Of a stretch of 64,000 nt of DNA, positions 1 to 19,085 are shown in pieces. Each line of letters starts with the position of its first letter. Positions within the stretch are counted from its first letter, which is position 1. The DNA is from Bacteroidales bacterium (lineage in GTDB: Bacteria; Bacteroidota; Bacteroidia; Bacteroidales; UBA1402). The notes beneath the pieces are model-generated. The model saw only the letters and a program-made list of their open reading frames with translations. It made no database searches and was not told where the DNA came from. The translations under genes and the position numbers were made by a program. The stretch covers positions 70,874 through 134,873 of the forward strand of contig JAQVXI010000004.1 of the NCBI GenBank assembly GCA_028709215.1. The letters are read 5' to 3'.

Positions 1-1335
1 TGCAACGACACAGTCTAACCATCCTTCGCTTAAATTAGCCGCTCTGCACTTGGATGAAAGCACATCTTGACTTATTGCAACAGGTAAACTATTGAGCCTA
101 TTAACATAAACTTTCTCTGCTTCTGTTGCTTCACTTTCTAATTGACTTTTAATAAACGTTTCAAAAGAAGATAATCGTTCTTTAGCATCGTCATTTAATG
201 GTTGATGACACAAAACACACCTTGTGCCATCTCCGATATTGGGGTATCCCGTATTTCTATATGCTTCTTGAAGAGAGAAAGTACGTGCTGCTTCCCATAA
301 AGATTTCCAAACCTGGCTGCCAACGCCCTGCAATTTGGATTTGTTTGCAATAATTTGTGCACTATCTTGGGCTATTTTACGCTTACTAATTGCATCATCC
401 ATTAATCCTTTTGTTGCTTTTCTTGCATCAAGATTTATTTGTATATAAGCCTCTGTAATTTCTCTGATAATTTTGTCGATTTCTGATTTTTGTTTTCTTT
501 TTTCTACTGCACTTTTTGCAGGGTCTTTTTCTTTTAGTCGCTTTTCAAGTTCTAATTTTATTTGTTCATTCGTTTCGTCCCAAATCAATATGCTTGCAAG
601 TTGTGACTCTGTCTGATTCTTATTTAGGTTATTATATACTCTTGAAAAATTTGTTGTTGAATATTCGACAGGAATAGTTGGTAGCGTTTTTACCAATCTT
701 TCACTTTCGTGCTTCAATTCTTGTTCAATTACTGAATAATAACGAGAAAACGCCTCAAAAAGCGCCACGCATTTTGGCGTGTACGCTACGGTATTTGCTC
801 CTTCAATATAACCATTCCCTGTATTCGTATCAAAGACATCAATTCCTGCTAAATCAGATATAGAACTATTGTTTATACTCCATTCTCTTGCTTCCTCAAA
901 ATCATCAATTGTATATTTGATGGTACATTTACTCCCATTAGAACCTTCATTATAAACATTTGGTTTTAAATCCTTGGCACGAGGTTTTCCACTGATCTTT
1001 TTGATGATTTTTGTATAACCAGATTTCCCAGATCCATTAGAGCCATATATCACAATTAGATTTTTATCTTTCTCAAATATCAACGGATTTCGTGGGGCTA
1101 AGCTTTCGATATTCTGAATGGATTCAATGGACAATAATCTAATTTGCTTTTCGTCCGTGGGCTTTACAAAATTTGGAAATGCTTTATCGACGAAGGTTGC
1201 ATTCGATTTTACCATTGTGATAATATCTGAGATGTCGGATTCTTCAATATTTTTTGTAAGAATCCGATATGCCAGTTCGGTTTGCCACCCTTTTAGGGTT
1301 TTAAACCAATCAGTTACCTCTTTCTGTGTATCCAT
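1..1335 (-). CDS. AAA_13-family (PrrC/RloC-like) ABC-type ATPase, N-terminal 445 aa only; the C-terminus lies beyond the left window edge
   Basis: My own minus-strand translation from the ATG at 1335 (absent from the ORF track because it runs off the edge): MDTQKEVTDWFKTLKGWQ... Walker A YGSNGSGKSGYTK (about nt 1021-1044). Long Lys/Glu-rich, coiled-coil-like stretch. CVLC (CxxC, nt 208-219) sits where RloC/Rad50-type zinc hooks occur. Confidence 0.7.
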   Translation of the reverse strand, partial: MDTQKEVTDWFKTLKGWQTELAYRILTKNIEESDISDIITMVKSNATFVDKAFPNFVKPTDEKQIRLLSIESIQNIESLAPRNPLIFEKDKNLIVIYGSNGSGKSGYTKIIKKISGKPRAKDLKPNVYNEGSNGSKCTIKYTIDDFEEAREWSINNSSISDLAGIDVFDTNTGNGYIEGANTVAYTPKCVALFEAFSRYYSVIEQELKHESERLVKTLPTIPVEYSTTNFSRVYNNLNKNQTESQLASILIWDETNEQIKLELEKRLKEKDPAKSAVEKRKQKSEIDKIIREITEAYIQINLDARKATKGLMDDAISKRKIAQDSAQIIANKSKLQGVGSQVWKSLWEAARTFSLQEAYRNTGYPNIGDGTRCVLCHQPLNDDAKERLSSFETFIKSQLESEATEAEKVYVNRLNSLPVAISQDVLSSKCRAANLSEGWLDCVVA

Positions 1336-1637
1336 TTCAGTCCCTTTTTTAATACTAATCACTCGTTTTTCTAACCTCATTCATCTCCCCACAATCACAC
1401 AACCTGAAATTGATACCGTGGTGCCGTTCCAACTTGTGTTCGTGAAAATGTCCGTAATACCAATCGGTTATGTTTGTCTGCCGTTCCTGTAATTTTCAGA
1501 TTTACAGTGCATAAAATTGGTGCAACGCTGTCGCACTTTTCATAAATATTTCCTCATAAGAAAGAAATTCACGAGATAGTTGAGAACATCTATAAAATGT
1601 GAATATGGGCTTTTCTGTCCACACTTTTGGAATACTC

Positions 1638-2087
1638 TCATTTGATTGTTTCATTCTTTTCTGCATTATTTTTTTCTTCAATTGATGGATGCTTACCACC
1701 GCCATGCCACGTGCCAGTAACAAGCCACAGCTCGTAGTGAAATAACCATTCAGAAGTCCATGGAAAAATTGTATGAACCAAATACTTCGAATGATTCCAC
1801 TCATTACCATCTGGATAGTATAAACACAAACATTGTTCCTCGTGAGAATAAATATGGGGTAATTGAGTTTTCCCATTTGCCAATGCCAGTGGTTTAGGAT
1901 TGATAACATAAACAGAAACACCATCTTTAAATGAATAGTTAATTCTAATTCGATACGTCAGACTATTAGGTGTTGGCGTTATATCCCCTTCCCAAATGAT
2001 TTTACGTCCTCCTTTGTGGATAAACTGTCCATTAGGAAAGTATGATTGAATGGATCCAATCTGATGTCTCATTTCTATGCTACTCAT
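1638..2087 (-). CDS. stand-alone E2/UBC-like protein, 149 aa (E2-only CBASS accessory, type II-short style)
   Basis: Track ORF 1638..2141 trimmed to the ATG at 2087 (MSSIEMRHQ...), which overlaps the upstream stop by 8 nt (GATGAGTAG). The segment LPHIYSHEEQCLCLYYPDGNEW resembles the HPN...CL active-site segment of UBC/prokaryotic E2 folds. Trp-rich helix region FPWTSEWLFHYELWLVTGTW. Lies immediately downstream of a CD-NTase. Confidence 0.6.
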   Translation of the reverse strand: MSSIEMRHQIGSIQSYFPNGQFIHKGGRKIIWEGDITPTPNSLTYRIRINYSFKDGVSVYVINPKPLALANGKTQLPHIYSHEEQCLCLYYPDGNEWNHSKYLVHTIFPWTSEWLFHYELWLVTGTWHGGGKHPSIEEKNNAEKNETIK

Positions 2088-3300
2088 CCTCGATGTTCCC
2101 AAAAAAATTGTGACCTGCAACAGTAGTTCTTCCAATCGCACCTAACATACCCGTTGTTGCAGCCATTTTTAACGTACCATTAGAACTTGAATCTTTGGAC
2201 GCTCCTCCGAAGTTGCTAAAAACCGTACTTGTTAAAGTCTCTCCAAACATCTGCTTCATTGTAGTACTTAACTTTGGCAATCCTTGTCCTGAGTCTGCAA
2301 TAAGCACATTTAAATCACTACGCAACTGTTGAATCCATAGATAGAAGTTTTGCTCTTTTTTAGGTTCTTTTTGCCATTTATCAGCAAAATTTTCCTCTGG
2401 ATTTACGGGATTTGCAACCCATTTAACACCCATTCGATCTTCAATATACATAGGCATTTTACGAACAATATTATCCAACGTATCAAAAATAGTGGTCTCA
2501 CCTTGATAGGATCTTGCCGCTAACGTGGTAACAATGATAGAGATTGGCTTGTTTTCATTTCCATCAAACATTATATCCCTATGTCGTTTAAGTAATTGAA
2601 CCACTCTTTGAAGAGGTAGCTTTGTTTTGTTGAATTTTGGAATGGGTGCAATGGAAGCACTTAGTGAGAACGATCTTCTCAATTCTGAAGGCCTTGTTGC
2701 GATGTTAAAAAACCATTTTGCATAACCAAATGGATTGCTTTTGAACCAGTTTTCAATATTTTTTTCTGTATAATAGTCAGATCTTGTTTTATCTGTTATT
2801 CTAATAGCAAGGCTGTCAACATTTTGTTGTTCAATCTCAGAAAAGGATTGCTCAAGAATTCTTTGATAGTTCTCATTTACAAAACAAGGAAGAATATCCA
2901 TGTGATATTTTCCCTTAGCATATTTCAATGTCCAACAACGTTTGCCTTCATTATTCAACATCGATTTGTAGGTGTTATTTTCTTTTATACGATCTCCGAC
3001 TGCGTTTTTCAAGTTATACTGAGTCCAGGCAGAAGGTTTTCGTTTAAGTTGACAGACTAAGTCTATATCTAAATCATCGTCATCAGAAACAGGATGCACC
3101 ATTGTGCCAAGCATAAACGAACCTTGGGGTAAAATCGCTGGATCATATTGTTGTAACGAACTTGAATTATCCGCCAGCCATGTTCCCATAGCTCGATAAC
3201 TAGTAACAATTGCATCATATTCGGTTTCAGTAATGTCTAATGCCTTTCCAAATTCATTGAAAATACTGCTGAATTGATCTTTCTGTGATTCTGTTATCAT
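2080..3300 (-). CDS. cGAS/DncV-like nucleotidyltransferase (CD-NTase; SMODS-type core with AGS-C-like C-terminal half)
   Basis: 406 aa. Pol-beta NTase signature PQGSFMLGTMVHPVSDDDDLDIDLV (GS...DxD), with the third acidic residue in KYHMDILPCF. A Gly/Ser/Thr/Ala-rich tail of about 50 aa. ATGA overlap with the upstream SAVED gene. Confidence 0.8.
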   Translation of the reverse strand: MITESQKDQFSSIFNEFGKALDITETEYDAIVTSYRAMGTWLADNSSSLQQYDPAILPQGSFMLGTMVHPVSDDDDLDIDLVCQLKRKPSAWTQYNLKNAVGDRIKENNTYKSMLNNEGKRCWTLKYAKGKYHMDILPCFVNENYQRILEQSFSEIEQQNVDSLAIRITDKTRSDYYTEKNIENWFKSNPFGYAKWFFNIATRPSELRRSFSLSASIAPIPKFNKTKLPLQRVVQLLKRHRDIMFDGNENKPISIIVTTLAARSYQGETTIFDTLDNIVRKMPMYIEDRMGVKWVANPVNPEENFADKWQKEPKKEQNFYLWIQQLRSDLNVLIADSGQGLPKLSTTMKQMFGETLTSTVFSNFGGASKDSSSNGTLKMAATTGMLGAIGRTTVAGHNFFGNIEDE

Positions 3301-4451
3301 ATTATTTCATTTTTAATCGTGATTACTGGAACATCTTCATCTAAAGCTGTATTATAATCATATAGAACCATTTCCATATCGGCTTTTGGCATCCATACAC
3401 GTCCTAACTCAATCGCACAAGCTACAGGCATTGCCATAAATATGTGTAAAATAGTTTGTCCGGTTGATGTTCTTATTTCATCCAAAACTGACCTTACCAA
3501 GGTGCGAAATTCCGATAATTGTTTTTCACACTTTAGCATATCATTATTGGGGAATTTAGCAGTAAATACCCAGATACTTGCTTGATCACCCAATCGTTCA
3601 CGAATTCGCTTAGAAATAGCATTAGCACTTAACGCAAAGATCAGTACCGTTTTTTTCGTAGTATCAGATGGGCGATTGATAATAAATTCATTTGCCCCAT
3701 CTCTTTCTAACCAATCCCAAGTGTCTGGCTCTCTGTGTTTCTGATAAACCTTAACATTTTGCAAATCAGAGAAGAGCGTTCCTAATTTAACCAATAATGG
3801 CTGAGTAGCTAATCCAAACACAGAAAAAGAGGCTTCTCCAATTTCAGAGATTAGAGGTTTAACCCTCGTGTTAAAAGCTGACACAATTTGCTTTTCGTTG
3901 ACAGCCCAATAGTCATTGGAGTTATCTTTAAATTCAGAGTTTTCAATACCCAAACAAATCGGTTTATCACTAAAAGGAAAATCTCCTTGTTTGAGCATTG
4001 AATTTACAATACTCTCAAAGTTTATTGAGGGGATAACACCTCCAATATTTGCCCCCATCAGAATAATATGTGACTTGTTTTCAGGCTTATATCCGCACAT
4101 CCGTTCAATTCTATCCTCATGATTCTTCTTCATTTCACGAAGACTTTCAACAGAATGTTCCAAATGTTTAGATTCATCAATTCGGTTGTGGCATTCATCG
4201 CACAGGAGCAACAAATTTGATAGATCAAGTTCTAATTCCTTTGACCAAAACCAATGGCCACGGGGTCCATTTTCTTGTGCTGCAACAATATGTGAGATAT
4301 ATGCTTTGTTCATTTGACGTTGAGTCAAAGAATCTTTCCAGAGAGGTGTATTACAATACTCGCATCTACCACCCGCTTTAACCCATAATTTGCAGGAAAC
4401 ATTTGTTGGAATCGATTTCCTAACTCGTTTTATTTTATTATTCTCTGACAT
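3297..4451 (-). CDS. cap5: Cap5-type CBASS effector: N-terminal HNH endonuclease fused to a C-terminal SAVED sensor domain
   Basis: 384 aa. HNH with zinc ligands: GGRCEYCN ... YISHIVAAQENG ... LLLLCDECHNRID. C-terminal SAVED-like pattern: SFSVFGLATQPLLVKLG ... ILHIFMAMPVACAIELGRVW. The start ATG is 2 nt after the hsdM stop. Confidence 0.8.
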   Translation of the reverse strand: MSENNKIKRVRKSIPTNVSCKLWVKAGGRCEYCNTPLWKDSLTQRQMNKAYISHIVAAQENGPRGHWFWSKELELDLSNLLLLCDECHNRIDESKHLEHSVESLREMKKNHEDRIERMCGYKPENKSHIILMGANIGGVIPSINFESIVNSMLKQGDFPFSDKPICLGIENSEFKDNSNDYWAVNEKQIVSAFNTRVKPLISEIGEASFSVFGLATQPLLVKLGTLFSDLQNVKVYQKHREPDTWDWLERDGANEFIINRPSDTTKKTVLIFALSANAISKRIRERLGDQASIWVFTAKFPNNDMLKCEKQLSEFRTLVRSVLDEIRTSTGQTILHIFMAMPVACAIELGRVWMPKADMEMVLYDYNTALDEDVPVITIKNEII

Positions 4452-4453
4452 AT

Positions 4454-5983
4454 TTAAAATCCCAAATCCTTTAAATATTCCTTCATTTTGCCCTGTACTT
4501 CGGCAAGTTCCATTTCCAATGCCGTAATTTCCTGCTGCACCGCTGCAATGTCAATTTCTTCTTCCTCTTCGAACGTATCCACATAGCGGGGAATGTTCAG
4601 ATTAAAGTCGTTCTCTTCGATTTCTTTAAAAGTGGCAACATAAGCATATTTTTCTTCGATCACGCCGGCTTGGATTTCGCCAGCTGAAAATTTCCGATAA
4701 GTAGAAACGATGTGCTCAATATCCTGTGAACGAAGTTTGTTTTGATTCTTGCCGTTTTCAAATTCTTTGCTGGCATCAATAAACAGCACATTAGTCGTCT
4801 TTTTTCCTTTGTTGAACAGGACGATTGCCGCAGGAATACCGGTGCCGAAAAACAGATTGGAGGGTAATCCGATAACAGCCTCCAGTAGATTTTCTTCAAT
4901 GGTTTGACGTCGGATTCTTCCTTCACTCGCTCCACGAAACAGCACCCCATGAGGAACAACAACGCCCACTTTTCCCGTTCCTTCATAAGCCACTTCTATC
5001 ATGTGACTGATAAAAGCCCAGTCGCCTTTACTCTTTGGGGGAACGCCGCGCCAAAAACGATGATAGGGATCGTCGGCAGCTTCATCGGCACCCCATTTAT
5101 CCAAACTGAAGGGAGGGTTTGCCACCACCGTATCGAATTTCATCAAGGAGTCGCCCTCTTTCAGTTTGGGTGTTCGAAGCGTATCGCCCCAGCGAATAGT
5201 GGCACTATCAAAACCGTGAAGAAACATATTCATCATCGCCAGAGCCCAGGTACTGCCGTTTAATTCCTGCCCGTAGAGAGAGAAGTTGTTGCCATCCACC
5301 TCTTGCCCTGCCTTAATCAACAAAGAGCCGGAACCGCATGTGGGGTCGCAGATTCTTGCACCGGGTTTACTTTTAGTCAGTTTGGCCAACAACGAGGAGA
5401 CTTCCGCAGGAGTAAAGAAGTCTCCGGCTTTTTTCCCGGATTCACTGGCAAAGGTGGAAACTAAAAACATATAGGCATCTCCAATCACATCGTTCCCCTC
5501 CAAATGCGATTCGTCAAAGCTCATTTTATCACCCGAAAAATCAATCAATAAGTTCTTCAGGCGTGTATTCTTATCTTTTGTATCCCCAAGATTACTACTG
5601 TTAAAGTCTATGTTGCGGAAAATTCCACTGCCATCTTCACTGCTCATCTTCTCCCGATTAGCCTCTTCAAGATCGGCAAGTGCGATGTTTATTAGCTCTC
5701 CGATCTTGTTATCGTTTCGATGTTCGAACAGGTAGTCAAAGGAACTATTTGAAGGGACTACAAAGCGTTCGTGACGCATGGCCCTGTCTGCTCTTTCTGT
5801 ATCACCGTCATATTTATCTATATACTCACTGTATTTTGACTTATAAACATCACTTACATATTTGATAAACAGCATGGTAAGAATGTAATCCTTGTATTGA
5901 CTGGGGTCTATGACACCTCTGAAAGTGTCACAAGCTTTCCATACGATGCGGTTAATATCTGTTTGATTGATTTTGATTTCCAT
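4454..5983 (-). CDS. hsdM: type I restriction-modification system methyltransferase subunit HsdM
   Basis: 509 aa. HsdM_N-like N-terminus (RIVWKACDTFRGVID). SAM motif I DPTCGSGSLL. Catalytic motif IV VVANPPFS. Confidence 0.92.
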   Translation of the reverse strand: MEIKINQTDINRIVWKACDTFRGVIDPSQYKDYILTMLFIKYVSDVYKSKYSEYIDKYDGDTERADRAMRHERFVVPSNSSFDYLFEHRNDNKIGELINIALADLEEANREKMSSEDGSGIFRNIDFNSSNLGDTKDKNTRLKNLLIDFSGDKMSFDESHLEGNDVIGDAYMFLVSTFASESGKKAGDFFTPAEVSSLLAKLTKSKPGARICDPTCGSGSLLIKAGQEVDGNNFSLYGQELNGSTWALAMMNMFLHGFDSATIRWGDTLRTPKLKEGDSLMKFDTVVANPPFSLDKWGADEAADDPYHRFWRGVPPKSKGDWAFISHMIEVAYEGTGKVGVVVPHGVLFRGASEGRIRRQTIEENLLEAVIGLPSNLFFGTGIPAAIVLFNKGKKTTNVLFIDASKEFENGKNQNKLRSQDIEHIVSTYRKFSAGEIQAGVIEEKYAYVATFKEIEENDFNLNIPRYVDTFEEEEEIDIAAVQQEITALEMELAEVQGKMKEYLKDLGF

Positions 5984-5993
5984 ATAGTTGAAA

Positions 5994-6554
5994 TTATTTT
6001 GTTGCGTTTAATAGTAATTGATTGGATAACTGCCTGGCTTTTTCTGTAATTTGCATACGTAGTGCGTACTCTTTTTCTTGCAATTGGTTACACTGGATTA
6101 TTTTACGTTGTATGTCTATAATAGGTACGTTGATTTCCAATTCTGCCAACATTTCTTTTGTTATGGATGGAGTAGCACTGCCTACGGCATTGAATTGCAA
6201 TTTTTTAAGAACTTGTGGGGTGTTAATGTACCAACATAGATATTCCGGCAAAACAGCAGTACGGCTAACCCTAATCACAAAAAAAGCACTCGATGCAACC
6301 GCTTTGCCCATCGTTTCACGATACAGGACACAAAAATTTGAAGTTCCTTTCGCTGCAAACAATAAATCCTTGTCTATAAGTGTGTATTTCGCTATTTTGC
6401 CACTGTCTATAATGGATGGTTTTAGCTCTCCATCCGCTAAATACGAAGATTTTAAATCTTTCACTTGCAGATACAGCAGGTCTCCATCTGTAACTTCTTT
6501 TTGGTAAGTTCCGGAAGTTATTTCTGCAATATCTGTCAGTTTTATTGTATTCAT
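5994..6554 (-). CDS. hsdS: type I R-M specificity subunit HsdS, half-size (single target-recognition domain plus one conserved helical region), 186 aa
   Basis: Track ORF 5994..6611 trimmed to the ATG at 6554 (MNTIKLTDIAEITSGTY...). One TRD followed by a C-terminal coiled helix (PIIDIQRKIIQCNQLQEKEYALRMQITEKARQLSNQLL). About half the usual ~400 aa. Ends 10 nt upstream of hsdM. Confidence 0.8.
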   Translation of the reverse strand: MNTIKLTDIAEITSGTYQKEVTDGDLLYLQVKDLKSSYLADGELKPSIIDSGKIAKYTLIDKDLLFAAKGTSNFCVLYRETMGKAVASSAFFVIRVSRTAVLPEYLCWYINTPQVLKKLQFNAVGSATPSITKEMLAELEINVPIIDIQRKIIQCNQLQEKEYALRMQITEKARQLSNQLLLNATK

Positions 6555-6581
6555 ATTTTTATCAGTAATAAAATTACGATG

Positions 6582-6589
6582 CAAATATA
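6582..6589 (-). promoter_or_regulatory. Bacteroidetes-type -7 promoter box (TATATTTG) upstream of hsdS
   Basis: The minus strand reads TATATTTG, matching TAnnTTTG, 28 nt upstream of the hsdS ATG at 6554. It is the only consensus box I see ahead of the hsdS-hsdM-CBASS gene string. Confidence 0.45.
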
Positions 6590-7018
6590 TTAAAATTTTA
6601 CATAACAACAAAATAATCTAAGTATATTCATTACTCAAATTACAAGATGTAGCCATGGAATTTACTTCTCTTTAAATATACGGATTGATTTTTAAAGTTT
6701 TTGTCATTCGTAGCATTTACTTTTTAGCTTTAATACTCGATAGAATCGGCAATTCTCGTTACCCAATCTATTTTCTTAACAACTCTACTCTTTCCACCAC
6801 AAACCAGACAACCACCTTCTACAATGATGATTTCAGATCGTTGAATATCTGTGAGAGAAGCTTTCTGACAATGTGCAGATATCTGGAAATCCAATCTTTT
6901 GTTTCATGGTTGGAGATTTAAAGCTGGTAAAGTAAACAAACCAAAACGACATGGCTTGACGTTTATCGGATTAGTTTCACTGTTTTCTATACCCTTTTCC
7001 TTTTGGTCGCTGCGTTTT

Positions 7019-8023
7019 TTATAATCTTCTGCCCTTTTTCTTTCTTCGTTGCATAAGCCTGCGAAACTCAGCTTCTTCAATATTCTCAGCAAGGTTTGCA
7101 TCGAACGGAATGTCTAGCAAACCACCAATTGTTGAAACAACTTCGGCTGCCGCATCACTTACCGGTTGCAGAGAGTCGGAAACGACGTTTGAAGTATTTT
7201 TTCCGAAAGATTGCACCAGATTTTGAGCGTGGATTTGTGGATTATATTCTTTGTCTGATTTTCTTGCATCACTCCATTGATTCTGATGCGCCTTTACTAT
7301 TGCAAACATTCGCATCAAATTCTTGTGACTAAACTTGCGGTCAATCTGAGAGCCTTTGAATGTATAATCGTCTTTCTCAAACGAAACTCCTTCTATAATA
7401 TCCGTTCCTCGGCGGCACTTAAACTGAATGGTAATCCCGTGTGGTTTGAGGTTTTCCGCCAACATTTGGTAATCCGCACTCTTTGGCAAAACCTCTTTCA
7501 TTGCGTCGCAAACCGCATACTTCGCCTTGTCCGCTCCGTATCGTTTCGGACGGTTTACACGCACCTTTCCTTTTCCATAAGTGAGCTGGTAGCGATCTTT
7601 CAGCTTTTTGCAGACAGCTATATTCCTTTTGTAATCGTTATTGACCGAAATAAGCTTCCGGCAGTTGTCGTTGTGTTCTTTAAACACGCCGTAGAGCGTT
7701 TTCGCATGATCGTCTTTACCCTGATAGTGGTTGACGATAGCACGGGGTGAAATGATTTTACCCTCAAGATCCATCTCCTGAAAAATCCTGAAAAACTGCA
7801 CGCGCAGTGAGTCGATGTAGTAGTTCAGATCATTTGATTTGCGATCACGCCCTGTGGCTCGTTCTTTGGGTTGCGACCAAAGTTCAGAGGGAATACTGCA
7901 TTTTAACTGCATCTCAACATACTGTTTGTCGTAGGTAATGCGCACACGCAGCGGTGCTTCGCCGTTTCTGAGTAGTTTTGATTTCTTGGTGTAAAACAAA
8001 ACCGAGAATCTTTTTCTTTCCAT
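7019..8023 (-). pseudogene. chimeric mobile-element remnant: tyrosine-integrase N-terminal arm-DNA-binding domain fused in frame to the C-terminal part of a Bacteroidetes MobA/VirD2-type relaxase
   Basis: 334-aa intact ORF. Residues 1 to ~125 (RFSVLFYTKKSKLLRNGEAPLRVRITYDKQYVEMQL...WSQPKERATGRDRKSNDLNYYIDSL) look like the arm-binding N-terminus of CTn/NBU integrases. No integrase catalytic core follows. Instead the rest looks like a relaxase C-terminus (LKPHGITIQFKCRRGTDIIEGVSFEKDDYTFKGSQIDRKFSHKNL ... RRKKKGRRL), without the relaxase N-terminal catalytic Tyr/His motifs. Confidence 0.6.
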
Positions 8024-8210
8024 AAAGTCCGTTTTTTTAGTTAGACAAAGTATGGAACACTACCAGACATTAGAGAAAATAGAATAGTGCAAAATACTGA
8101 ATAACAATCATTTGTAGGGTTATTCGTGGGACTTTTTGAAAGTCTGAAAAGTCCCCTGTTTAAGGCCGTGAGAGGCACTCAAAAAGGGCTTATTTTGCCT
8201 ACTCTGAGGA

Positions 8211-8247
8211 ATAAAAAATCCCCGATTTTCTTTGAAAATCGGGGATT
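8211..8247 (-). terminator. rho-independent terminator downstream of tRNA-Phe
   Basis: Perfect 13-bp stem (8217-8229 AATCCCCGATTTT with 8235-8247) and a 5-nt loop. On the minus strand it is followed by TTTTTTAT. Confidence 0.75.
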
Positions 8248-8272
8248 TACGTCGTTTTGAATCTTTCTTTTG

Positions 8273-8345
8273 TGGTGCCACCAGGAATCGAACCGGGGAC
8301 ACAAGGATTTTCAGTCCTTTGCTCTACCAACTGAGCTATGGCACC
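8273..8345 (-). tRNA. tRNA-Phe (anticodon GAA), CCA encoded
   Basis: The minus strand reads GGTGCCATAGCTCAGTTGGTAGAGCAAAGGACTGAAAATCCTTGTGTCCCCGGTTCGATTCCTGGTGGCACCA. Hand-folded cloverleaf with anticodon loop CTGAAAA. There is one C:U mismatch in the T stem by eye. Confidence 0.9.
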
Positions 8346-8361
8346 ATTGCTTTAGCGGCCA

Positions 8362-8369
8362 CAAAAGTA
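8362..8369 (-). promoter_or_regulatory. -7 promoter box (TACTTTTG) for tRNA-Phe
   Basis: The minus strand reads TACTTTTG, matching TAnnTTTG, 17 nt upstream of the tRNA 5' end. Confidence 0.45.
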
Positions 8370-8453
8370 CGATGGCTTTTTGGATTATCCAAATACCTCA
8401 ACGTTTTTTTTTAAAAAAAATCGATTCGTGTTGCCAATCGAAAAACCTTTTCA

Positions 8454-8461
8454 TACATTTG
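8454..8461 (+). promoter_or_regulatory. -7 promoter box (TACATTTG) for tRNA-Pro
   Basis: TACATTTG matches TAnnTTTG, 15 nt upstream of the tRNA-Pro 5' end. Divergent from the tRNA-Phe promoter. Confidence 0.45.
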
Positions 8462-8475
8462 CATCCGAATTCAAT

Positions 8476-8548
8476 CGGGATGTAGCACAGTTGGTAGCGC
8501 GCTACGTTCGGGACGTAGAGGTCGGAAGTTCGAGTCTTCTCATCCCGA
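8476..8548 (+). tRNA. tRNA-Pro (anticodon CGG), CCA not encoded
   Basis: CGGGATGTAGCACAGTTGGTAGCGCGCTACGTTCGGGACGTAGAGGTCGGAAGTTCGAGTCTTCTCATCCCGA. Anticodon loop TTCGGGA. The acceptor stem CGGGATG/CATCCCG is typical of tRNA-Pro. Confidence 0.88.
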
Positions 8549-8555
8549 CAGAATG

Positions 8556-8596
8556 AAAAGGGCTGATGCATAAACAAAGATTGCATCAGCCCTTTT
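8556..8596. terminator. bidirectional intrinsic terminator between tRNA-Pro (+) and the thioredoxin-family gene (-)
   Basis: 15-bp stem AAAAGGGCTGATGCA (8556-8570) pairs with TGCATCAGCCCTTTT (8582-8596). The A-run and T-run flanks give a U-tract on both strands. Confidence 0.8.
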
Positions 8597-8620
8597 TAAT
8601 TACTGGATCCTCCGGGATGA

Positions 8621-9727
8621 TTATTTTCCGAAGATCTCTTCTAAACGCTGACTCAAAGCCTCACCGCGCAAGTCTTTGGCTACAATCTTGCCTTCGGGGT
8701 CCAGTAGCACGGTGTGGGGAATTGAAGAGAAAGCATACAAATTGACCGCAGTACTTTGCCAGCCTGCCAAATCAGACATATGTGGCCAAGAAAGTGTGTG
8801 CGTTTCAATGGCGTTTTTCCATGCATCCCCATCGGTATCCAAAGACACGCCGACAATCTCAAAGCCTTTGGAGTGATAAGCTTCATAGGTCGCTTTTAAA
8901 TGCGGTATTTCACGAATGCAGGGACCACACCAGGAAGCCCAGAAATCAATCAACACATACGAACCTTTACCCGCTATACTGGAAAGCAAAAACGGGCTCC
9001 CATCGGGAGCATTCATTTCCAACTCGACAAACGGTCGACCCGGAATAACCCGATGTGCCTTGCGCGATATCTCGGCGATCATTTGCATAAATGGCTGTTC
9101 AAGGGCGGTGGCACTCGCTGCAGCCAGCACTGCGTCCAAATCCTCTAACTCCATATACTGAACCGTAGACTTCAAAATATGCATCCCAGCTGGATTATTG
9201 ATATTATCGACGACTTTTTGCGTGGAGAAAGCACGCATATCCTGCTCAAAACGCTCGTAGGAGGCCGAATAAGCCTCAAAAGCCGCTTGATCCTCCCGAT
9301 TCTGTTGGTAGACACGCATGGTTTGCATCAAGTCCTCAGAAAGCGCTCGAAAATCCCGGTCAAAGTCCTGATAGATGGCATTGATCTCACCACCGGTAAA
9401 GGCCAATCGACCTTCAACTTCCGCAACCTCTACACGAGGTTCCATAAAAAAATCACCCATCAACGAGCGCTCACCTTGAGCATCCTGAATCACCAAAAAG
9501 AACCAGCCAACAGAATCTACGCGACCGGACAACTCAAAACTGTCCCCTTCAATCAACACAGAGTCCAACGCCAGAGCCTCTTGTCCTTGATCCTCCGTAA
9601 ATGGATAGAGGAGCACCTGATGACCATTTTTGGACGCATCGGCCAGTGATCCGTGAATCAAATACGTCGATTTTCCGGAACAGGAAATAAGCAATGCCGA
9701 TAGAACGGCAATCATGATAGTTTTCAT
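8621..9727 (-). CDS. TlpA/AhpC-TSA family thiol:disulfide oxidoreductase lipoprotein
   Basis: 368 aa. Lipobox LLISCSG. Thioredoxin active site DFWASWCGPC in the C-terminal domain. Confidence 0.85.
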   Translation of the reverse strand: MKTIMIAVLSALLISCSGKSTYLIHGSLADASKNGHQVLLYPFTEDQGQEALALDSVLIEGDSFELSGRVDSVGWFFLVIQDAQGERSLMGDFFMEPRVEVAEVEGRLAFTGGEINAIYQDFDRDFRALSEDLMQTMRVYQQNREDQAAFEAYSASYERFEQDMRAFSTQKVVDNINNPAGMHILKSTVQYMELEDLDAVLAAASATALEQPFMQMIAEISRKAHRVIPGRPFVELEMNAPDGSPFLLSSIAGKGSYVLIDFWASWCGPCIREIPHLKATYEAYHSKGFEIVGVSLDTDGDAWKNAIETHTLSWPHMSDLAGWQSTAVNLYAFSSIPHTVLLDPEGKIVAKDLRGEALSQRLEEIFGK

Positions 9728-9738
9728 AACATATACGA

Positions 9739-10635
9739 TTAAAAACGAGCATAAACACTCAGTGGCAATCGGACACCATGGGTATCTGCCACCATTAATT
9801 CTCCACTTTCGATTTCAGAAACGCCTTTCTTGAAATAATAGTGAAGTAGATTTTCAGCAATAATGGGTGAAAATCCCATTGAATACAGGTTGAGTACCAC
9901 AAAACCTCCCGGCAAAAGCAATTCTGCACAAACCTCCAACAAACGGGTAATATGGGACTCTAAAATCCACTTTTCTCCGTCCGCTCCCCTTCCGTATGCA
10001 GGCGGATCGAGCAGGATGCCGTGATAACGACTACCCCTACGCTGCGCTCGCAGTACAAATTTCATGGCATCTTCTACAATCCATCGAATCCGATCCGTTC
10101 CGGTGGCTGTCGCATTCTCTCGCGCCCAGTTCACAACAGGTTTTACCGAATCCACGTGCGTTACACGTGCTCCAGCCAGTGCCGCAGCCAATGAAGCGCC
10201 ACCCGTGTAGGCAAACAGATTGAGCACTTCTGCTTCTTCCGATTTAGGTAACGCTTGAATGCGCTGATGGATGAAGTCCCAGTTTGAAGATTGCTCAGGG
10301 AAGATTCCGATGTGTTTGAACGCAGTCATGCCCAAACGAAAATGCATCTTCTGTCCGAAGAGGGGGTACTCAATCACCCATTGATCCGGCATGCCTTTAC
10401 GAAGAACCCATTCACCCCGTTCACCGGAATCCTGTGACGCATTGGGCTTTTGCTTTTTAAACCACGCATGGCAACGTGCTTCCCACTCCGACTCAGTTAG
10501 TCGTTTGGGCCACACAGCTTGAGGCTCGGGTCTTCTTAAAACATAGGCCCCATAGCGTTCTAATTTTTCATAGCCACCGGAATCCAATAACTCATACGCA
10601 CTCCACTGTGGGTTTACTAGCTGCAACATAGACAC
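9739..10635 (-). CDS. class I SAM-dependent (RlmI-like) RNA methyltransferase
   Basis: 298 aa. SAM-binding LNLFAYTGGASLAAA and the LLDPPAYG motif. The ORF opens with GTG at 10635. The first ATG is at 10629. Confidence 0.7.
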   Translation of the reverse strand: MSMLQLVNPQWSAYELLDSGGYEKLERYGAYVLRRPEPQAVWPKRLTESEWEARCHAWFKKQKPNASQDSGERGEWVLRKGMPDQWVIEYPLFGQKMHFRLGMTAFKHIGIFPEQSSNWDFIHQRIQALPKSEEAEVLNLFAYTGGASLAAALAGARVTHVDSVKPVVNWARENATATGTDRIRWIVEDAMKFVLRAQRRGSRYHGILLDPPAYGRGADGEKWILESHITRLLEVCAELLLPGGFVVLNLYSMGFSPIIAENLLHYYFKKGVSEIESGELMVADTHGVRLPLSVYARF

Positions 10636-10704
10636 AAATTTTAGTCAAAGATAAGAAAGATAGCGTTTTTTTTCGCACTTTTGGGGTTTCAATTAAAATG
10701 GAAC

Positions 10705-11505
10705 ATGGAACGAATCACCAGCCTGCAGAATCCAAGAATTAAACGCCTACAACTTTTAAACAAACACCGGGAGCGCATCCAGCAACAACGGTTTTCGATG
10801 GAAGGTGCCCGTGAATTGGGTCTGGCACGCAAAGCCGGTTATGAAATCGAATCCATCTACTATTGTCCGGAAATCTTCGCAAAAACGGAATATCCACACG
10901 TTCTTGAAGGGATTCCCGAAAATAAACTGGTTGAAATTACCCCTGCTGTTTTTGAGAAACTTGCATACAGAGAGCAGTCCGACGGAATCATCGCCCTGCT
11001 AAGACCCAAAAACCACCGATTGCAGGATCTGACACTTTCAGACAATCCATTTATTATCATTTTAGAAAAAGTAGAAAAACCAGGCAATCTTGGAGCCGTA
11101 CTGCGCACGGCGGATGCAGCGAAAGCAGACGCCGTCATTGTCTGTGATCCTTCGACCGATGTATACAACCCAAACGTCATTCGATCCAGCGTAGGAGGAC
11201 TTTTTACCGTACCCGTTGGTGTAGCCGATGCTCAAACATTGCTGAAATGGCTTCAGGATCAAAACATTCACACCTTCGCAGCCGAACTGGAAGCCAGTAA
11301 ATGGTATCACGAATGCGACTTCAAGCAGGCCTCGGCCATCGTAATGGGCACAGAGGCGGATGGACTGACCGATTTTTGGTTGAAGCACAGTGAATACCGC
11401 ATCAAAATCCCGATGCAAGGGCAATTGGACTCGCTCAATTTGTCGGTATCGACTGCCATACTGACCTTCGAAGCCATGCGTCAACGCAACTTCAATCAAG
11501 TTTAA
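10705..11505 (+). CDS. TrmH/SpoU-family RNA 2'-O-methyltransferase
   Basis: Track ORF trimmed to the ATG at 10705 (MERITSLQNPRIKRL). SpoU motifs: EKVEKPGNLGAVLRTADAA, IVMGTEADGL, LNLSVSTAI. Confidence 0.85.
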   Translation: MERITSLQNPRIKRLQLLNKHRERIQQQRFSMEGARELGLARKAGYEIESIYYCPEIFAKTEYPHVLEGIPENKLVEITPAVFEKLAYREQSDGIIALLRPKNHRLQDLTLSDNPFIIILEKVEKPGNLGAVLRTADAAKADAVIVCDPSTDVYNPNVIRSSVGGLFTVPVGVADAQTLLKWLQDQNIHTFAAELEASKWYHECDFKQASAIVMGTEADGLTDFWLKHSEYRIKIPMQGQLDSLNLSVSTAILTFEAMRQRNFNQV

Positions 11506-12316
11506 CGTGCAATGCAGTAATGGAACGCTTCACAAAAATAGAAGCGGATTCCTCAAATTTATCCACCGATTCAGTGGTTAAAAAGGCACACGAAGCGTTC
11601 CGAGTACAACAAGACTCCATTTCCGGATGCCTCGAAAGATAGTCTTTAAGGCTCTTAGCGACATAAGCACCCTGCGTAACGACCTGCACCCCTTTTGGAA
11701 CATATTGCTCAATGAGCGGTCTCAACAAGGGATAATGCGTACAACCCAGCAGCAGTGTGTCGATCTGAGGATCTCGTTCAAACAACGTTCGAATATGTCG
11801 CTCCACAAAAAAGGCAGCACCCCCAGTCTCCTGTTCACCATTCTCTACCAAGGGAACCCACATGGGGCAAGCTTCAGACGTCATCACGATGTCCGGAAAC
11901 AGTTTTCGAACCTCTAAGGGATAGGATCCGGAAAGCACCGTCCCTGGTGTCGCCGTCAACCCAACATGCCTGGAAGTGGTCAAAGATCCCAAAACTTCTA
12001 CCGTCGGACGCAAAATACCCAACACCCTCCGATCCGGAGACATGTTGGGTAAATCAACTTGCTGAATCGTGCGCAAAGCCTTCGCAGACGCCGTATTACA
12101 CGCTAAAATCACCAGTGAACAACCTTGGTCAAATAAGAATCGTACCGCCTGACGTGTAAACGCATACACCGTCTCAAACGACCGATTCCCATAAGGTGCG
12201 CGGGCATTGTCTCCTAAATACAAATAATCGTACTCAGGCAATTCGGAACGGATGTCCTCCAATATCGTCAAACCTCCGTAACCCGAATCGAATATGCCTA
12301 TTGGACCCGGTTGCAA
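11492..12316 (-). CDS. murI: glutamate racemase
   Basis: 274 aa. Motifs IGIFDSGYGGLT, ILACNTASA, LGCTHYPLL. Apparent TTG start. Confidence 0.92.
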   Translation of the reverse strand: MQPGPIGIFDSGYGGLTILEDIRSELPEYDYLYLGDNARAPYGNRSFETVYAFTRQAVRFLFDQGCSLVILACNTASAKALRTIQQVDLPNMSPDRRVLGILRPTVEVLGSLTTSRHVGLTATPGTVLSGSYPLEVRKLFPDIVMTSEACPMWVPLVENGEQETGGAAFFVERHIRTLFERDPQIDTLLLGCTHYPLLRPLIEQYVPKGVQVVTQGAYVAKSLKDYLSRHPEMESCCTRNASCAFLTTESVDKFEESASIFVKRSITALHVKLD

Positions 12317-12325
12317 AACAAGAAA

Positions 12326-12838
12326 TTATTTAAGATTCAATTTGGATCGCACCAGATTGGTTACATCCGTACACTTATCCATGGACCAATAAACCATACC
12401 GGCATTGGCAGACGTATCAAAGATGTACACAAAACCATTTTCTTCCCCAACCGCTTTCACTGCACGCTGCAATTTTTCATTGATCGGTGTCAACAACTGT
12501 GTACGCTGGGTTTGCAAATCACGTTCCGAGAACTGATAAAACTCCTGCATACGCTCTTGAAGATCCTGAATCTCAGCCATTCTGCGTACACGAATCGATT
12601 CCAAAATGGTATCACGTTGAGCGACAAACTCGGTGCTTTTCTTCCGATATTCTTCTTGCATGGACAACAACTCCCCTTCGTAACGCTTGGTCAGCGTATC
12701 CAGTCTACTGGAGGCCACTTCGGTTTCCGGCATACTCGTAAAAAGTTGATTCATGTCAACATAACCAAATTTCAGATCTTGTGCAAAAAGCGCAACGGGC
12801 AGAAAGAACAGCACCGTAAAAATAAACTTTCTAATCAT
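12326..12838 (-). CDS. OmpH/Skp-family periplasmic chaperone
   Basis: 170 aa. Signal peptide, then a Gln/Glu-rich coiled coil. Position downstream of bamA is typical for Bacteroidetes. Confidence 0.8.
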   Translation of the reverse strand: MIRKFIFTVLFFLPVALFAQDLKFGYVDMNQLFTSMPETEVASSRLDTLTKRYEGELLSMQEEYRKKSTEFVAQRDTILESIRVRRMAEIQDLQERMQEFYQFSERDLQTQRTQLLTPINEKLQRAVKAVGEENGFVYIFDTSANAGMVYWSMDKCTDVTNLVRSKLNLK

Positions 12839-12881
12839 GTGTGTTTCGTGAATTTATGAATAATAGCACTCATTATCAGGG

Positions 12882-13391
12882 TTAATAACCCATTTTTTGC
12901 AACACTTGGTCGCTAATATCAATTTTTGGGGACGCAAAAAGTATGTGCGAAGAAGAAGCTCGATCCAAAACCAGCATATAGCCTTCTTCTTCCGAAAGAA
13001 GTTTTATGGCATTGTATATCTCGTCCTGAATGGGATTCAGCAAACTTTCACGCTTTTTAAACAATTCACCTTCCGAACCAAAATATTGCTTCTTCAGTTC
13101 TGCGGCCTGTTTTTCTTTTTCAAGGATGGCCGTCTCGCGTTTAGACTTCATTTCATCCGACAAATAAACCATCTCAGCCTGGTACTTCGTATACAAATCT
13201 TTTGCCGTCTGAACAAGGCCGTCGATCTCAGCCTGCCACTTTTTGGACGCTTGCGTCAATTGATCGTTGGCCATTTCATAGGCCGGAATCTTGGATAAAA
13301 TGTAATCCATATCGATCAACGCATATTTCTGAGCCTGTACAGACGTCCCCGCAAGGATCATGACCATCAACGAAAATAGTATCTTCTTCAT
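12882..13391 (-). CDS. OmpH/Skp-family periplasmic chaperone
   Basis: 169 aa. Signal peptide (MKKILFSLMVMILAGTSVQAQ), then coiled coil. Second copy in tandem. Confidence 0.8.
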   Translation of the reverse strand: MKKILFSLMVMILAGTSVQAQKYALIDMDYILSKIPAYEMANDQLTQASKKWQAEIDGLVQTAKDLYTKYQAEMVYLSDEMKSKRETAILEKEKQAAELKKQYFGSEGELFKKRESLLNPIQDEIYNAIKLLSEEEGYMLVLDRASSSHILFASPKIDISDQVLQKMGY

Positions 13392-13484
13392 AGCTCTGTG
13401 TATTTAGTTCTACCCTCAAAAATAAGCAATCCTTTTTAACATTGATACTTCTTAACGAATTTTGTGTCAAAAGTAAACAATCTT

Positions 13485-16067: not shown

Positions 16068-16089
16068 GTAAATCATGCTTCTATGGAAT

Positions 16090-16833
16090 CTATTGTTGGA
16101 TTTGTTCACTGGTTTTTCCAAACCGTCTCTCTCGCATCTGATACTCGTAAATCGCGTCAAAAAATGCCTCTTTTCTAAATGCCGGCCAAGGAATATCGGT
16201 AAAATACAATTCTGCATAAGCCAATTGCCACATCAGAAAATTGCTGATTCGCAGCTCTCCTCCCGTACGGATCAACAAATCCGGATCCGGAAAATCACGG
16301 GTTGTCAAATACCGTTCAAACATCGACTCATCAAGATCCTCTGTACGAACCTTGCCCTGCAAAACCGATGCAGCCACAGCGCGCGCAGCCTCAACAATCT
16401 CCCAACGCGAGGAATAGCTCAAGGCGAGAATAAGCGTAAGTTCTGAACAGGATGAAGTTTCTGACATACACCAATTGGCCTTCTCAATCAAATCCTCCGG
16501 CAAACGGCTCATATCACCGATAATACGCAGACGAATTCCGTTATCGATCATATCGGGTGTTTCACGTTCAAGCGCATCGAGCATCAACGACATCAGACCA
16601 ATCACTTCTTCTTCAGGACGATTCCAGTTCTCGGTAGAAAACGTATAAAGGGTCATATACCGAATGCCCAATTCACGGGCAGCCTCCGTAATGACGCGTA
16701 CCGTAGACACACCCTCCATATGACCGTAAGAACGGTCTTTACCCAAACTTTTTGCCCATCGCCCATTTCCATCCATAATGATGGCCACGTGCTTTGGAAG
16801 TTTTGTTTTATCTATTTGATCAATCACCTTCAT
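16090..16833 (-). CDS. uppS: isoprenyl transferase (undecaprenyl-diphosphate synthase)
   Basis: 247 aa. Motifs HVAIIMDGNGRWA and RTGGELRISNFLLWQ-like (IRTGGELRISNFLMWQLAYAELYF). Confidence 0.93.
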   Translation of the reverse strand: MKVIDQIDKTKLPKHVAIIMDGNGRWAKSLGKDRSYGHMEGVSTVRVITEAARELGIRYMTLYTFSTENWNRPEEEVIGLMSLMLDALERETPDMIDNGIRLRIIGDMSRLPEDLIEKANWCMSETSSCSELTLILALSYSSRWEIVEAARAVAASVLQGKVRTEDLDESMFERYLTTRDFPDPDLLIRTGGELRISNFLMWQLAYAELYFTDIPWPAFRKEAFFDAIYEYQMRERRFGKTSEQIQQ

Positions 16834-17523
16834 TCAATTATAACAACATTTTGTCCCGGCAGCAAACAAATCGAACGTAAGCCTTAAAGACAATACAGAA
16901 TACCAATCCGAATTCTTTCCACCCACACCGTCAACGCCCATTGGATGACGCAATTGAAAGGCATCAAAAGGCTCCGCGGCATCCAAATCATCCGACGATA
17001 ATCTGCGCCAGGTCCAATCCAAATTGGCATTGAGCCTGGGTAAAACCTTCGCTTTTACCCCAACACCAAAAGGGATGGAAAAAGCCCATTGCCGCTGGTT
17101 CGTTTTATACGAACTTACGCCCACCCCAACGGATACATACGGACTGATCCAGGATGAGCCTTGCACATACGCCGGCATACCATATTCATAAAAATTCATT
17201 TCCAAGAGTACACCTACATCTTGTACCGATCGATCGAACGCCAACGTTCTTCCGTTCAGAAAAACAGACGGATCTGTCTCTACAGAACCCGAAACACGAG
17301 CGTTGTTTGCTTCTGCTCTCAGTGCAAAGCGCCCATTCAACGCATACCGACCAACCAGTCCGTACGACAATTCAGGGCTCGTAAACCATTCATGCATGTT
17401 GGCATCCCCCATGTAAGCCGATTGTCCCAAAGACAAGCCAACTTCCACCTTATACGCTTGCGCATACACTTGCGTGCACACACTCATCAACAAAACCAGC
17501 AGACCACATGCATTCTTTCTCAT
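16834..17523 (-). CDS. outer-membrane beta-barrel protein (DUF6089-like)
   Basis: 229 aa. Signal peptide and alternating beta-strand pattern. Its stop abuts the uppS start with zero gap. Confidence 0.6.
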   Translation of the reverse strand: MRKNACGLLVLLMSVCTQVYAQAYKVEVGLSLGQSAYMGDANMHEWFTSPELSYGLVGRYALNGRFALRAEANNARVSGSVETDPSVFLNGRTLAFDRSVQDVGVLLEMNFYEYGMPAYVQGSSWISPYVSVGVGVSSYKTNQRQWAFSIPFGVGVKAKVLPRLNANLDWTWRRLSSDDLDAAEPFDAFQLRHPMGVDGVGGKNSDWYSVLSLRLTFDLFAAGTKCCYN

Positions 17524-17610
17524 CTCATTCCGTTTGAACGTTCACGAATATCGGTTACTTCCTTAAACGTTCAAATGCGTCAAAACGTATTTCACTTCTG
17601 CCGTTTCGCA

Positions 17611-18999: not shown

Positions 19000-19085
19000 G
19001 AAATTTCTATAATATCCGCATTTAATCAGCAAAATTAGTAAGATTTTTATCTTTTATTTGATGCAAGTGCAAGTTTTATGAAAAA

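Follow-up and report, generated by a model that had tools for sequence, protein, structure and literature searches.

Defence genes nested within type I restriction-modification (R-M), BREX, DISARM and Hma loci have been described as 'guilt-by-embedding' (Payne, Hughes, Fineran and Jackson, 2024, bioRxiv 10.1101/2024.01.29.577857). According to the main text of that preprint, 96.7% of the embedded genes lie in the same orientation, backup and co-regulation are discussed, and PrrC is embedded almost exclusively in type I loci. The RRDM island of enteropathogenic Escherichia coli (EPEC) carries RptR, HsdM, HsdS, DarTG2, HsdR and an M48 metallopeptidase under one RptR-controlled promoter, and its hsdS-hsdR site has been proposed as a recombination hotspot for defence systems (PMC12255303). 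The type IV restriction system TgvAB lies inside the type I cluster of Vibrio cholerae VPI-2, where it acts independently and in a complementary manner and does not need HsdR activity (PMC11411939). Here we describe the left end of a 64,000-nt stretch of Bacteroidales DNA (contig JAQVXI010000004.1, forward-strand positions 70,874 to 134,873; hereafter the window), where type I R-M genes are followed by a signalling system against phages that is based on cyclic oligonucleotides (CBASS) and by an RloC-like ATPase. Our preferred reading, with a probability of about three in four, is that window 1–6612 is the 5′ part of a long minus-strand type I R-M operon in which the CBASS and the ATPase are embedded as layered, independent modules.

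The EPEC RRDM island is the closest characterised analogue of this scaffold. In each, a toxin module or one for abortive infection precedes hsdR, an M48/YgjP-like peptidase comes last, and a single promoter lies upstream. They differ in their first gene, which is the repressor gene RptR in EPEC and a half-size hsdS in the window, where no regulator was seen; in the site of the cargo, DarTG2 occupying the hsdS-hsdR slot while CBASS and the ATPase occupy the hsdM-hsdS slot; and in their promoters, proteobacterial in EPEC and of Bacteroidota type in the window (PMC12255303). TgvAB is likewise an independent defence system within a type I operon, but it is a modification-dependent nuclease rather than a cyclic-nucleotide abortive-infection system, and its host phylum and operon position also differ (PMC11411939). 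As in the embedding set out in the main text of Payne et al. (2024), the nesting is on the same strand (199 of 200 cargo genes in the survey below), known cargo is mixed with PDC candidates, and the ATPase matches the PDC-S06 model; unlike what is set out there, we deal with one specific Bacteroidota scaffold with two slots, an extra half-size hsdS in first position and a trailing YgjP-like peptidase. CBASS goes unmentioned in the main text of Payne et al. (2024), figures and supplements aside, and a literature search on CBASS together with hsdM/hsdR embedding returned no paper on this combination, again aside from figures and supplements. The locus is a clear example of the known nesting of defence genes in restriction operons and no new type of system.

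Gene order and the two-slot scaffold

Gene coordinates were obtained from the open reading frame (ORF) list, from translation of the ORF at the window edge and by reading the junctions directly. All six genes are on the minus strand; from right to left, the features are:

6582–6612, minus strand: promoter, with -33 TTTG (6612–6609), a 19-nt spacer and -7 TATATTTG (6589–6582)
5994–6554, minus strand: half-size hsdS, 186 residues from ATG, with one target-recognition domain and one conserved helix; first gene of the operon
4454–5983, minus strand: hsdM, type I N6-adenine DNA methyltransferase of 509 residues
3297–4451, minus strand: cap5, CBASS effector of 384 residues with an N-terminal HNH endonuclease and a C-terminal SAVED sensor
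2080–3300, minus strand: nucleotidyltransferase of cGAS/DncV-like type (CD-NTase), 406 residues, clade-G-like (CdnG)
1638–2087, minus strand: E2-only, ubiquitin-conjugating-like CBASS regulator of 149 residues
1336–1637, minus strand: non-coding spacer of 302 nt between the E2 and ATPase genes, with a weak terminator-like hairpin at 1536–1520
1–1335, minus strand: PDC-S06/AAA_13 ABC ATPase, N-terminal 445 residues of about 860 (445 codons, open at the window edge)

The half-size hsdS and hsdM are separated by 10 nt (TTTCAACTAT) and hsdM and cap5 by 2 nt (TAA-AT-ATG), while cap5 overlaps the CD-NTase gene by 4 nt (ATGA) and the latter overlaps the E2 gene by 8 nt. The first-pass annotation of the window had placed the same six genes at these coordinates with these junctions, all of which were reproduced, and Pfam and PADLOC agree with each of its gene names. 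HsdM matches Pfam N6_Mtase (E = 2e-101) and HsdM_N (E = 1e-26) and retains its DPTCGSG (residue 213) and NPPF (residue 289) motifs; the catalytic motifs of the cyclase and Cap5 are intact as well. The half-size HsdS has a single Pfam Methylase_S domain (E = 4.8e-10) and also matches PADLOC Specificity_I. The window holds the domains and motifs of a type I HsdM, and neither an HsdS with two target-recognition domains nor an HsdR. Identical cap5, CD-NTase and E2 genes occur in three independent short assemblies (contigs L001–L003), one of which (L001) also carries the 302-nt spacer and the start of the ATPase gene. Contigs with an identical CBASS are present in the runs SRR34068995, SRR22315502 and SRR22315505.

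Scanning species-representative genomes with the window HsdM yielded 80 related loci (HsdM 73–87% identical), nearly all from Bacteroidota isolates and metagenome-assembled genomes (MAGs). Their ORFs were called and clustered, and cluster representatives were searched for Pfam and PADLOC domains. The common layout is half-size hsdS, hsdM, a first variable slot (A), full-length hsdS, a second variable slot (B), hsdR and a gene for a YgjP-like metallopeptidase, always in this order. The half-size gene (about 186 residues, directly before hsdM) was found in 77 of the 80 loci, full HsdS in 69, HsdR (1040–1080 residues) in 58 and the YgjP-like protein in 49. Slot A holds none to four variable genes and slot B none to five; cargo genes are on the operon strand in 199 of 200 cases, and their junctions are mostly 20 nt or shorter. 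In several relatives (L137, L044, L104 and others) the cargo lies between genes of one R-M system on the same strand, which is what defines embedding. The window shows the upstream flank (half-size hsdS and hsdM) and the strand agreement, with the downstream flank outside it.

Since half-size HsdS proteins are only 36–56% identical between loci, far less conserved than the adjoining HsdM, the half-size gene looks like a diversifying specificity gene. Judging by the layout of its relatives, it is not the sole specificity gene of this family, and it may provide a second, palindromic specificity as a homodimer. The survey predicts one promoter for the array and perhaps two specificity subunits, hence possibly two methylation motifs.

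The cargo is diverse. Fic proteins (29 loci), Schlafen AlbA_2/HATPase_c_4 proteins, Bro-N proteins, HAD hydrolases, Pycsar cyclases with PycTM, AbiTii, PifA-like proteins, PD-Lambda-4_A, AriA/OLD-like ATPases, PDC-S05, PDC-S08 and PD-T4-6 kinases were all found in the slots, and CBASS is cargo in three of the genome loci (L044, L074 and L076). The insert next to close hsdM homologues is thus variable, and CBASS is one of many cargoes in two slots. The first-pass description of a composite defence operon is upheld; its view that CBASS is specially wired into the R-M operon is not, because CBASS is interchangeable cargo and such embedding has already been published.

Pycsar-like pairs, consisting of a Guanylate_cyc cyclase of about 243 residues and a PycTM protein of about 183 residues, occur in slot B between hsdS and hsdR (L071:15138–15866 and neighbours; L067:8054–8602; L033, L050 and L081), and a second cyclic-nucleotide abortive-infection system is therefore found on the same scaffold. 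Recurrent cargo clusters c7, c9, c11, c12, c16, c17, c19, c22 and c23 had no Pfam or PADLOC match. Two of them, c9 and c7, form a pair of about 94 and 146 residues in 10–16 loci (for example L024:12970–13251 with the adjacent 145-residue gene, and L017:2866–3303) that looks like a toxin-antitoxin pair. The unmatched recurrent cargo (the c9+c7 pair, c12, c16, c17, c22 and c23) comprises candidate new defence genes, and both slots could be mined for more, several recurrent families being without a match in either collection.

In the preferred reading, slot A of this strain would hold a complete E2-type CBASS, then the 302-nt spacer, then the PDC-S06 ABC ATPase. Sequence and comparison place the start of transcription at TTTG-N19-TATATTTG, from where it most likely reads through the translationally coupled genes, putting the methyltransferase and CBASS on one mRNA, and the remaining R-M genes, downstream past the window edge, would depend on read-through of the cargo. 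By analogy with homologues, the type I enzyme would restrict unmethylated DNA, with the modules acting independently and in layers. CdnG would be held in check by covalent attachment of E2 at its C-terminal glycine; late in infection it would make a cyclic dinucleotide that activates Cap5, and DNA would be degraded (abortive infection). The ATPase is a candidate for a second suicide or backup function. Such an array most likely arose as the slots of an R-M scaffold, itself horizontally mobile, repeatedly took up and exchanged cassettes, and not from a functional dependence of CBASS on R-M. The locus would be a clean and comparatively well documented case of layered immunity within a single operon, in which restriction is combined with abortive infection through cyclic nucleotides and with an ATPase that is a candidate of the tRNase type; it comes from Bacteroidota of gut and environment, a group whose defence regulation has received little study.

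A probable single promoter for the array

A full Bacteroidota-type promoter (TTTG-N19-TATATTTG) lies 28 nt upstream of the ATG of the half-size hsdS. A longer, TTG-started ORF extends to 6611, and the promoter position favours the 186-residue start over the upstream TTG. Among the relatives, the -7 consensus TAnnTTTG was sought 5–120 nt upstream of every gene of the array. It precedes 48 of 77 half-size hsdS genes against a background of 5.3%, and the remaining classes gave the following counts:

hsdM: 3 of 81
slot-A genes: 9 of 109
full hsdS: 4 of 69
slot-B genes: 6 of 127
hsdR: 2 of 59
ygjP: 1 of 47

A further 18 cargo genes without slot assignment had the -7 motif in 11% of cases and the full promoter in 0%. 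The full -33/-7 promoter was found before 32 of 77 half-size hsdS genes and at most 2% of the other assigned classes (background 0.9%). This indirect evidence supports a family-wide arrangement in which one promoter before the half-size hsdS probably serves the whole array, cargo included. That the five genes from half-size hsdS to E2 are a single transcription unit is very probable, given junctions that are tight or overlap, only one well-formed promoter, and the outcome of surveying 80 relatives. The same unit had been proposed in the first-pass annotation, and it is backed by the finding that, among the relatives, only the half-size hsdS has an enriched promoter motif (48/77 versus 2–8%). 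A scan for sigma-70-type promoters was uninformative (18 sites against 24.6 expected), being based on the wrong model for Bacteroidota.

Two more specific claims about the window were borne out in part. The -7 box before hsdS (6589–6582) is real, but it is not the only one, as had been claimed, since a second minus-strand TAnnTTTG consensus lies within the CD-NTase gene (2491–2484). A hairpin with a T-run had been said to be absent between 6554 and 1638, yet a weak one with a T-rich tail is present inside hsdM (5440–5423). Hairpin-plus-T-tail sites as a whole are not in excess (9 found, 6.4 ± 2.8 in shuffled sequence). In the gap between the E2 and ATPase genes, the weak hairpin at 1536–1520 reads GTGCGACAGCGTTGCAC followed by CAATTTTATG, and partial termination is plausible in this spacer and nowhere else in the window. 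Searches with blastx and blastn of the 302-nt spacer, for a pseudogene or hsdS remnant, and of the region upstream of hsdS matched the identical short contigs only.

Several points weigh against one operon with layered modules. The -7 box within cdnG could permit internal starts, and across the whole window the -7 motif is not enriched (54 found, 47.8 expected), so that a lone -7 site is weak evidence. The 302-nt spacer with its weak hairpin could permit partial termination before the ATPase gene. An integrase/MobB remnant further to the right, described below, shows decay of the surrounding island at one end, and the completeness of the R-M system in this strain has to be read across from its relatives.

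CBASS, the ATPase or both might instead use internal promoters of their own and share only their location with hsdSM. This would agree with the consensus box in cdnG, with the hairpin and following TTTT in the 302-nt gap before the ATPase gene, and with the autonomous CBASS relatives, which must have promoters of their own. With a gap of 2 nt and overlaps of 4 and 8 nt, however, there is no room for an intergenic promoter before cap5, cdnG or E2. A motif scan found no -7 box in the 302-nt spacer or in the final 120 nt of the hsdM gene, and promoter motifs before slot-A and slot-B cargo in the 80 relatives are near background (5–8% versus 5.3%). We consider separate units unlikely.

The CBASS cassette and the RloC-like ATPase

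Cap5 matches Pfam SAVED (E = 4.7e-44) and HNH, the PADLOC endonuclease effector model (E = 1e-135) and, in the PDB, 7rwk (E = 7e-73). The CD-NTase is an SMODS/DncV-like NTase in Pfam and a cyclase in PADLOC (E = 2e-135), with the motifs GS (residues 60–61), DxD (78–80) and D (135); its PDB relatives include the cGAS-like enzyme 9woo (E = 2e-64) and SmCdnG 8hsb (E = 3e-40). Its C-terminus reads HNFFG-NIEDE, a glycine followed by a five-residue tail, and HNF[FHY]G is invariant among four aligned cyclases. In SmCdnG, residues beyond the C-terminal glycine are removed by E2 (PMC12948482). The E2 protein matches PADLOC E2 (E = 4e-49) and SmE2 (PDB 8hsb chain B, E = 2e-20), and PF26395 E2-CBASS was found on the identical E2 gene in L001 and L003. 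No E1 or JAB domain matched among the seven scanned proteins of window 1–8023 (Pfam, PADLOC). The hallmarks of a type II-short system are present, namely the CD-NTase motifs, a stand-alone E2 beside a cyclase with a conserved C-terminal glycine, and a cyclic-nucleotide-sensing effector. Because cyclase, E2 and Cap5 match solved structures (8hsb/9woo, 8hsb_B and 7rwk), the cassette is, by homology, a complete and apparently intact CdnG-E2-Cap5 system of the E2-CBASS (type II-short) kind.

The published E2-CBASS and CdnG-Cap5 systems (SmCdnG-SmE2, PDB 8hsb, PMC12948482; AsCdnG-Cap5, PDB 7rwk, PMC8568899) have the same three proteins as the window, namely a long clade-G-type CD-NTase whose C-terminal glycine is conserved, an E2 that stands alone and a Cap5 of HNH-SAVED architecture. 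Unlike these autonomous operons, cap5 in the window starts 2 nt past the hsdM stop, with no consensus promoter directly upstream.

Scanning metagenomes with the four-cyclase alignment added 80 loci with a CBASS of this clade. The majority are autonomous systems, either Cap5-CdnG-E2 or CdnG-E2-CapV, with no HsdM-family gene nearby, even with 10-kb flanks, and by this survey the clade clearly works without an R-M enzyme. About 11 CBASS loci are embedded in the same R-M family. One (L137) has half-size HsdS, HsdM, Cap5, CdnG, E2, HsdS, HsdR and YgjP in that order, which is the window order completed. In others the cassette sits in slot B (L104) or slot A (L154, L163), or the cyclase gene directly follows hsdM (L101, L119). 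Four loci have a full-length hsdS between cdnG-E2 and the gene for a patatin effector, capV (PADLOC phospholipase effector, E = 1e-96): L074:11580–16037, L076:11641–15580, L121:3840–7827 and L128:1379–6172, with a fifth, partial case in L105. Stop and start codons overlap in the split loci L074 and L076. As cdnG, E2 and capV are contiguous in autonomous members of the clade, a CBASS operon has here been interleaved with R-M genes, and this split arrangement is the strongest hint of a deeper integration of CBASS and R-M. In a rough neighbour-joining tree of CdnG, which is shallow, embedded copies are scattered over several long branches among autonomous ones; neither a single origin of R-M-embedded CBASS nor strict independence can be claimed from it.

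The ATPase matches the PADLOC model PDC-S06 (PDLC04893; E = 4.2e-123), residues 1–437 aligning with model positions 1–444 of 862; some 420 residues would accordingly lie outside the window. Its homologues carry PF13166 AAA_13. A Walker A motif, GSNGSGKSG, lies at residues 98–106 (window 1018–1044), and a zinc-hook-like CxxC, here CVLC, at residues 373–376 (window 208–219) within a long insert. This CxxC is invariant in seven members of the family. An insert of about 480 residues separates Walker A from the ABC signature. In P0004 and P0031, homologues that reach the C-terminus, the ABC signature, Walker B and H-loop come next (about residues 520–580 in P0004), and both, as two independent sequences only, have a further C-terminal domain of about 170 residues with R-[IT]-L-V-E followed 50 residues on by EHSQP.

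The published definition of RloC combines ABC motifs with a helical insert that bears a CX2C hook and with an Arg-X3-Glu-X36-52-His anticodon nuclease triad (PMC2610378). An ABC head and a CX2C-bearing helical insert are found in the window ATPase, and the R-x3-E-x50-H of its homologues falls within the RloC triad R-x3-E-x36-52-H. As with RloC and PrrC (PMC2610378; PMC3874165), the ABC ATPase head lies in or near an R-M locus. It can defensibly be called an RloC-like ATPase by architecture and a member of PDC-S06, the window copy being read from its N-terminal half. An identity with PrrC was considered and rejected: the PADLOC PrrC model had no match to the window fragment at E ≤ 0.01, and PrrC-type ATPase domains have no coiled-coil insert, in contrast to the insert of about 480 residues here. 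In full-length homologues, the Walker B region alone gives a marginal match to the PrrC model PDLC02360 (E = 1e-5 to 3e-4). The PDC candidates, PDC-S06 included, were selected so as to leave out established defence systems (Payne et al., 2024). Of the earlier designation of this gene as PrrC/RloC-like, the RloC half stands, on the Walker A motif and the invariant CxxC, and the PrrC half does not.

The best homologue of the ATPase is 69% identical, with no CBASS upstream of it in either of its contigs (L170, L171). A PDC-S06 gene was found in none of the 160 relatives surveyed (80 HsdM loci and 80 CBASS loci). In L164:1–14846, the homologue P0031 (32% identical to the window ATPase) directly follows DISARM-like genes, namely DUF499, a DUF1156 methylase and a PLD-domain SNF2 helicase, and lies immediately before sbcD-sbcC.

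A type I complex could in principle hold CBASS, the ATPase or both latent until a phage anti-restriction function releases them, as EcoprrI does with PrrC. Such coupling has its precedent in PrrC and RloC (PMC2610378; PMC3874165), and it would fit the RloC hallmarks of the ATPase family (the invariant CxxC in a helical insert; R-x3-E-x50-H in P0004 and P0031). It would also fit the origin of the PDC models, including PDC-S06, which as stated in the preprint's main text were built from proteins embedded in BREX, DISARM or type I systems (Payne et al., 2024), and the long-term co-inheritance of CBASS and R-M evident where hsdS lies between cdnG-E2 and capV. Yet in most of the 80 loci from metagenomes the CdnG-E2-Cap5/CdnG-E2-CapV clade has no HsdM-family gene close by, and CBASS has known triggers and an E2 control of its own (E2 mechanism: PMC12948482). 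RloC is seldom linked to R-M (PMC2610378), and P0031 lies beside DISARM-like genes and SbcCD rather than type I genes. The association recurs, but the mostly autonomous clade speaks for co-expression and co-transfer rather than mechanistic dependence. We regard functional coupling as improbable, and the cross-talk suggested in the first-pass annotation found nothing in its support.

A broader version, for which the prospects are slim, would make the scaffold a single-promoter platform for defence cassettes, integron-like in effect, with some cargo functionally integrated with the R-M enzyme; examples would then be a CBASS with hsdS separating its effector gene from cdnG-E2, and an RloC-like ATPase that the type I complex gates, and disabling restriction would directly arm abortive-infection modules. 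The relatives with split hsdS and CBASS genes are the best material for asking whether genomic hitch-hiking alone is at work or regulatory dependence too. The significance of the locus would rise only if the split CBASS/hsdS loci or the ATPase proved to be gated by the restriction complex.

Predicted downstream genes and the strain-specific island

Searches by tblastn with family proteins gave no match to HsdR, full-length HsdS or the YgjP-like protein anywhere in the 64-kb window, in agreement with the original reading that hsdR is absent from it. That hsdR would lie just beyond the left edge needs adjusting in distance: it is expected from the relatives, where HsdR is present in 58 of 58 loci with enough flank, but probably at least 2.5–3 kb out. 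In the relatives hsdR starts 1.2–8.4 kb after hsdM (median 4.6 kb), while the window offers 4.45 kb after hsdM, and every contig on which HsdR is lacking stops within 7.9 kb of hsdM. Full hsdS, hsdR and the gene for the YgjP-like peptidase are expected to make up what is missing of the operon; the full hsdS, which the first-pass annotation had not foreseen, is expected because 69 relatives have one downstream of slot A. In searches for a leftward extension, the exact CD-NTase was found in three contigs of 2.6–3.1 kb only, the exact HsdM had no match on record, and an exact 46-mer from window 10–55 was absent from the metagenome collection.

The operon lies in a strain-specific island. Window 8213–19727 shows 98.25% identity to L172, a contig from a conspecific MAG, and identity breaks at 8213 (L172:11515); by this comparison, window 1–8212 is strain-specific DNA, and L172 is without the whole island. 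Two features mark its right end:

8213–8345, minus strand: island right border, with a tRNA-Phe gene (8272–8345) and a terminator hairpin (8216–8248); L172 identity begins at 8213
7019–8023, minus strand: chimeric remnant ORF of 334 residues, an integrase Arm-DNA-binding domain fused to the C-terminal third of a MobB/TraI-like mobilisation protein of Bacteroides type

In the fusion ORF, Pfam places Arm-DNA-bind_5 at residues 10–94 and a TraI_middle/MobB-like part at residues 164–331, and NCBIfam Bacteroid_MobB aligns over model positions 268–419 of 420. The ORF was apparently left behind by deletion within an integrative mobilisable element, and it marks a decayed mobile element at the right end of the island. 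Except for the hsdM core, window 1–8212 has about 36% G+C, against about 47% in the host. Within the operon, the hsdM core (4500–5750) has 44–50% G+C, close to that of the host chromosome (about 47%), while the flanking half-size hsdS, CBASS and ATPase genes have 34–38%. The difference between the hsdM core and its flanking genes suggests that scaffold and cargo are of mosaic origin.

Another account would see a decayed locus that, after loss of hsdR and full hsdS, keeps half-size hsdS and hsdM as the remnant of an orphan methyltransferase, with CBASS and the ATPase as no more than its neighbours in a degraded mobile island. This could explain a 64-kb window without hsdR or full hsdS, the adjoining integrase/MobB fusion as a deletion remnant, a 302-nt spacer atypically long for an R-M family with junctions mostly of 20 nt or less, and the PDC-S06 gene found in 0 of 160 relatives. 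All six genes, however, are intact with their catalytic motifs, the window stops well within the range of distances at which hsdR starts in relatives, hsdR is lacking in 0 of the 58 relatives with enough sequence, and L137 continues the same order into hsdS, hsdR and ygjP. We therefore give this account little likelihood.

At the site of the island, L172 carries a different trio of genes (L172:12176–14672), encoding proteins of 315 residues, 256 residues (nucleotidyltransferase-like, GG...DIDI) and 261 residues (Metallophos). Homologues of the first two (31–58% identical) are slot-A cargo in L049, L060, L061, L065 and L073, where they frequently adjoin a Metallophos gene. Many metagenome contigs break at the tRNA-Phe site, and the trio seems to be a candidate defence system, so far uncharacterised, in a hotspot at tRNA-Phe.

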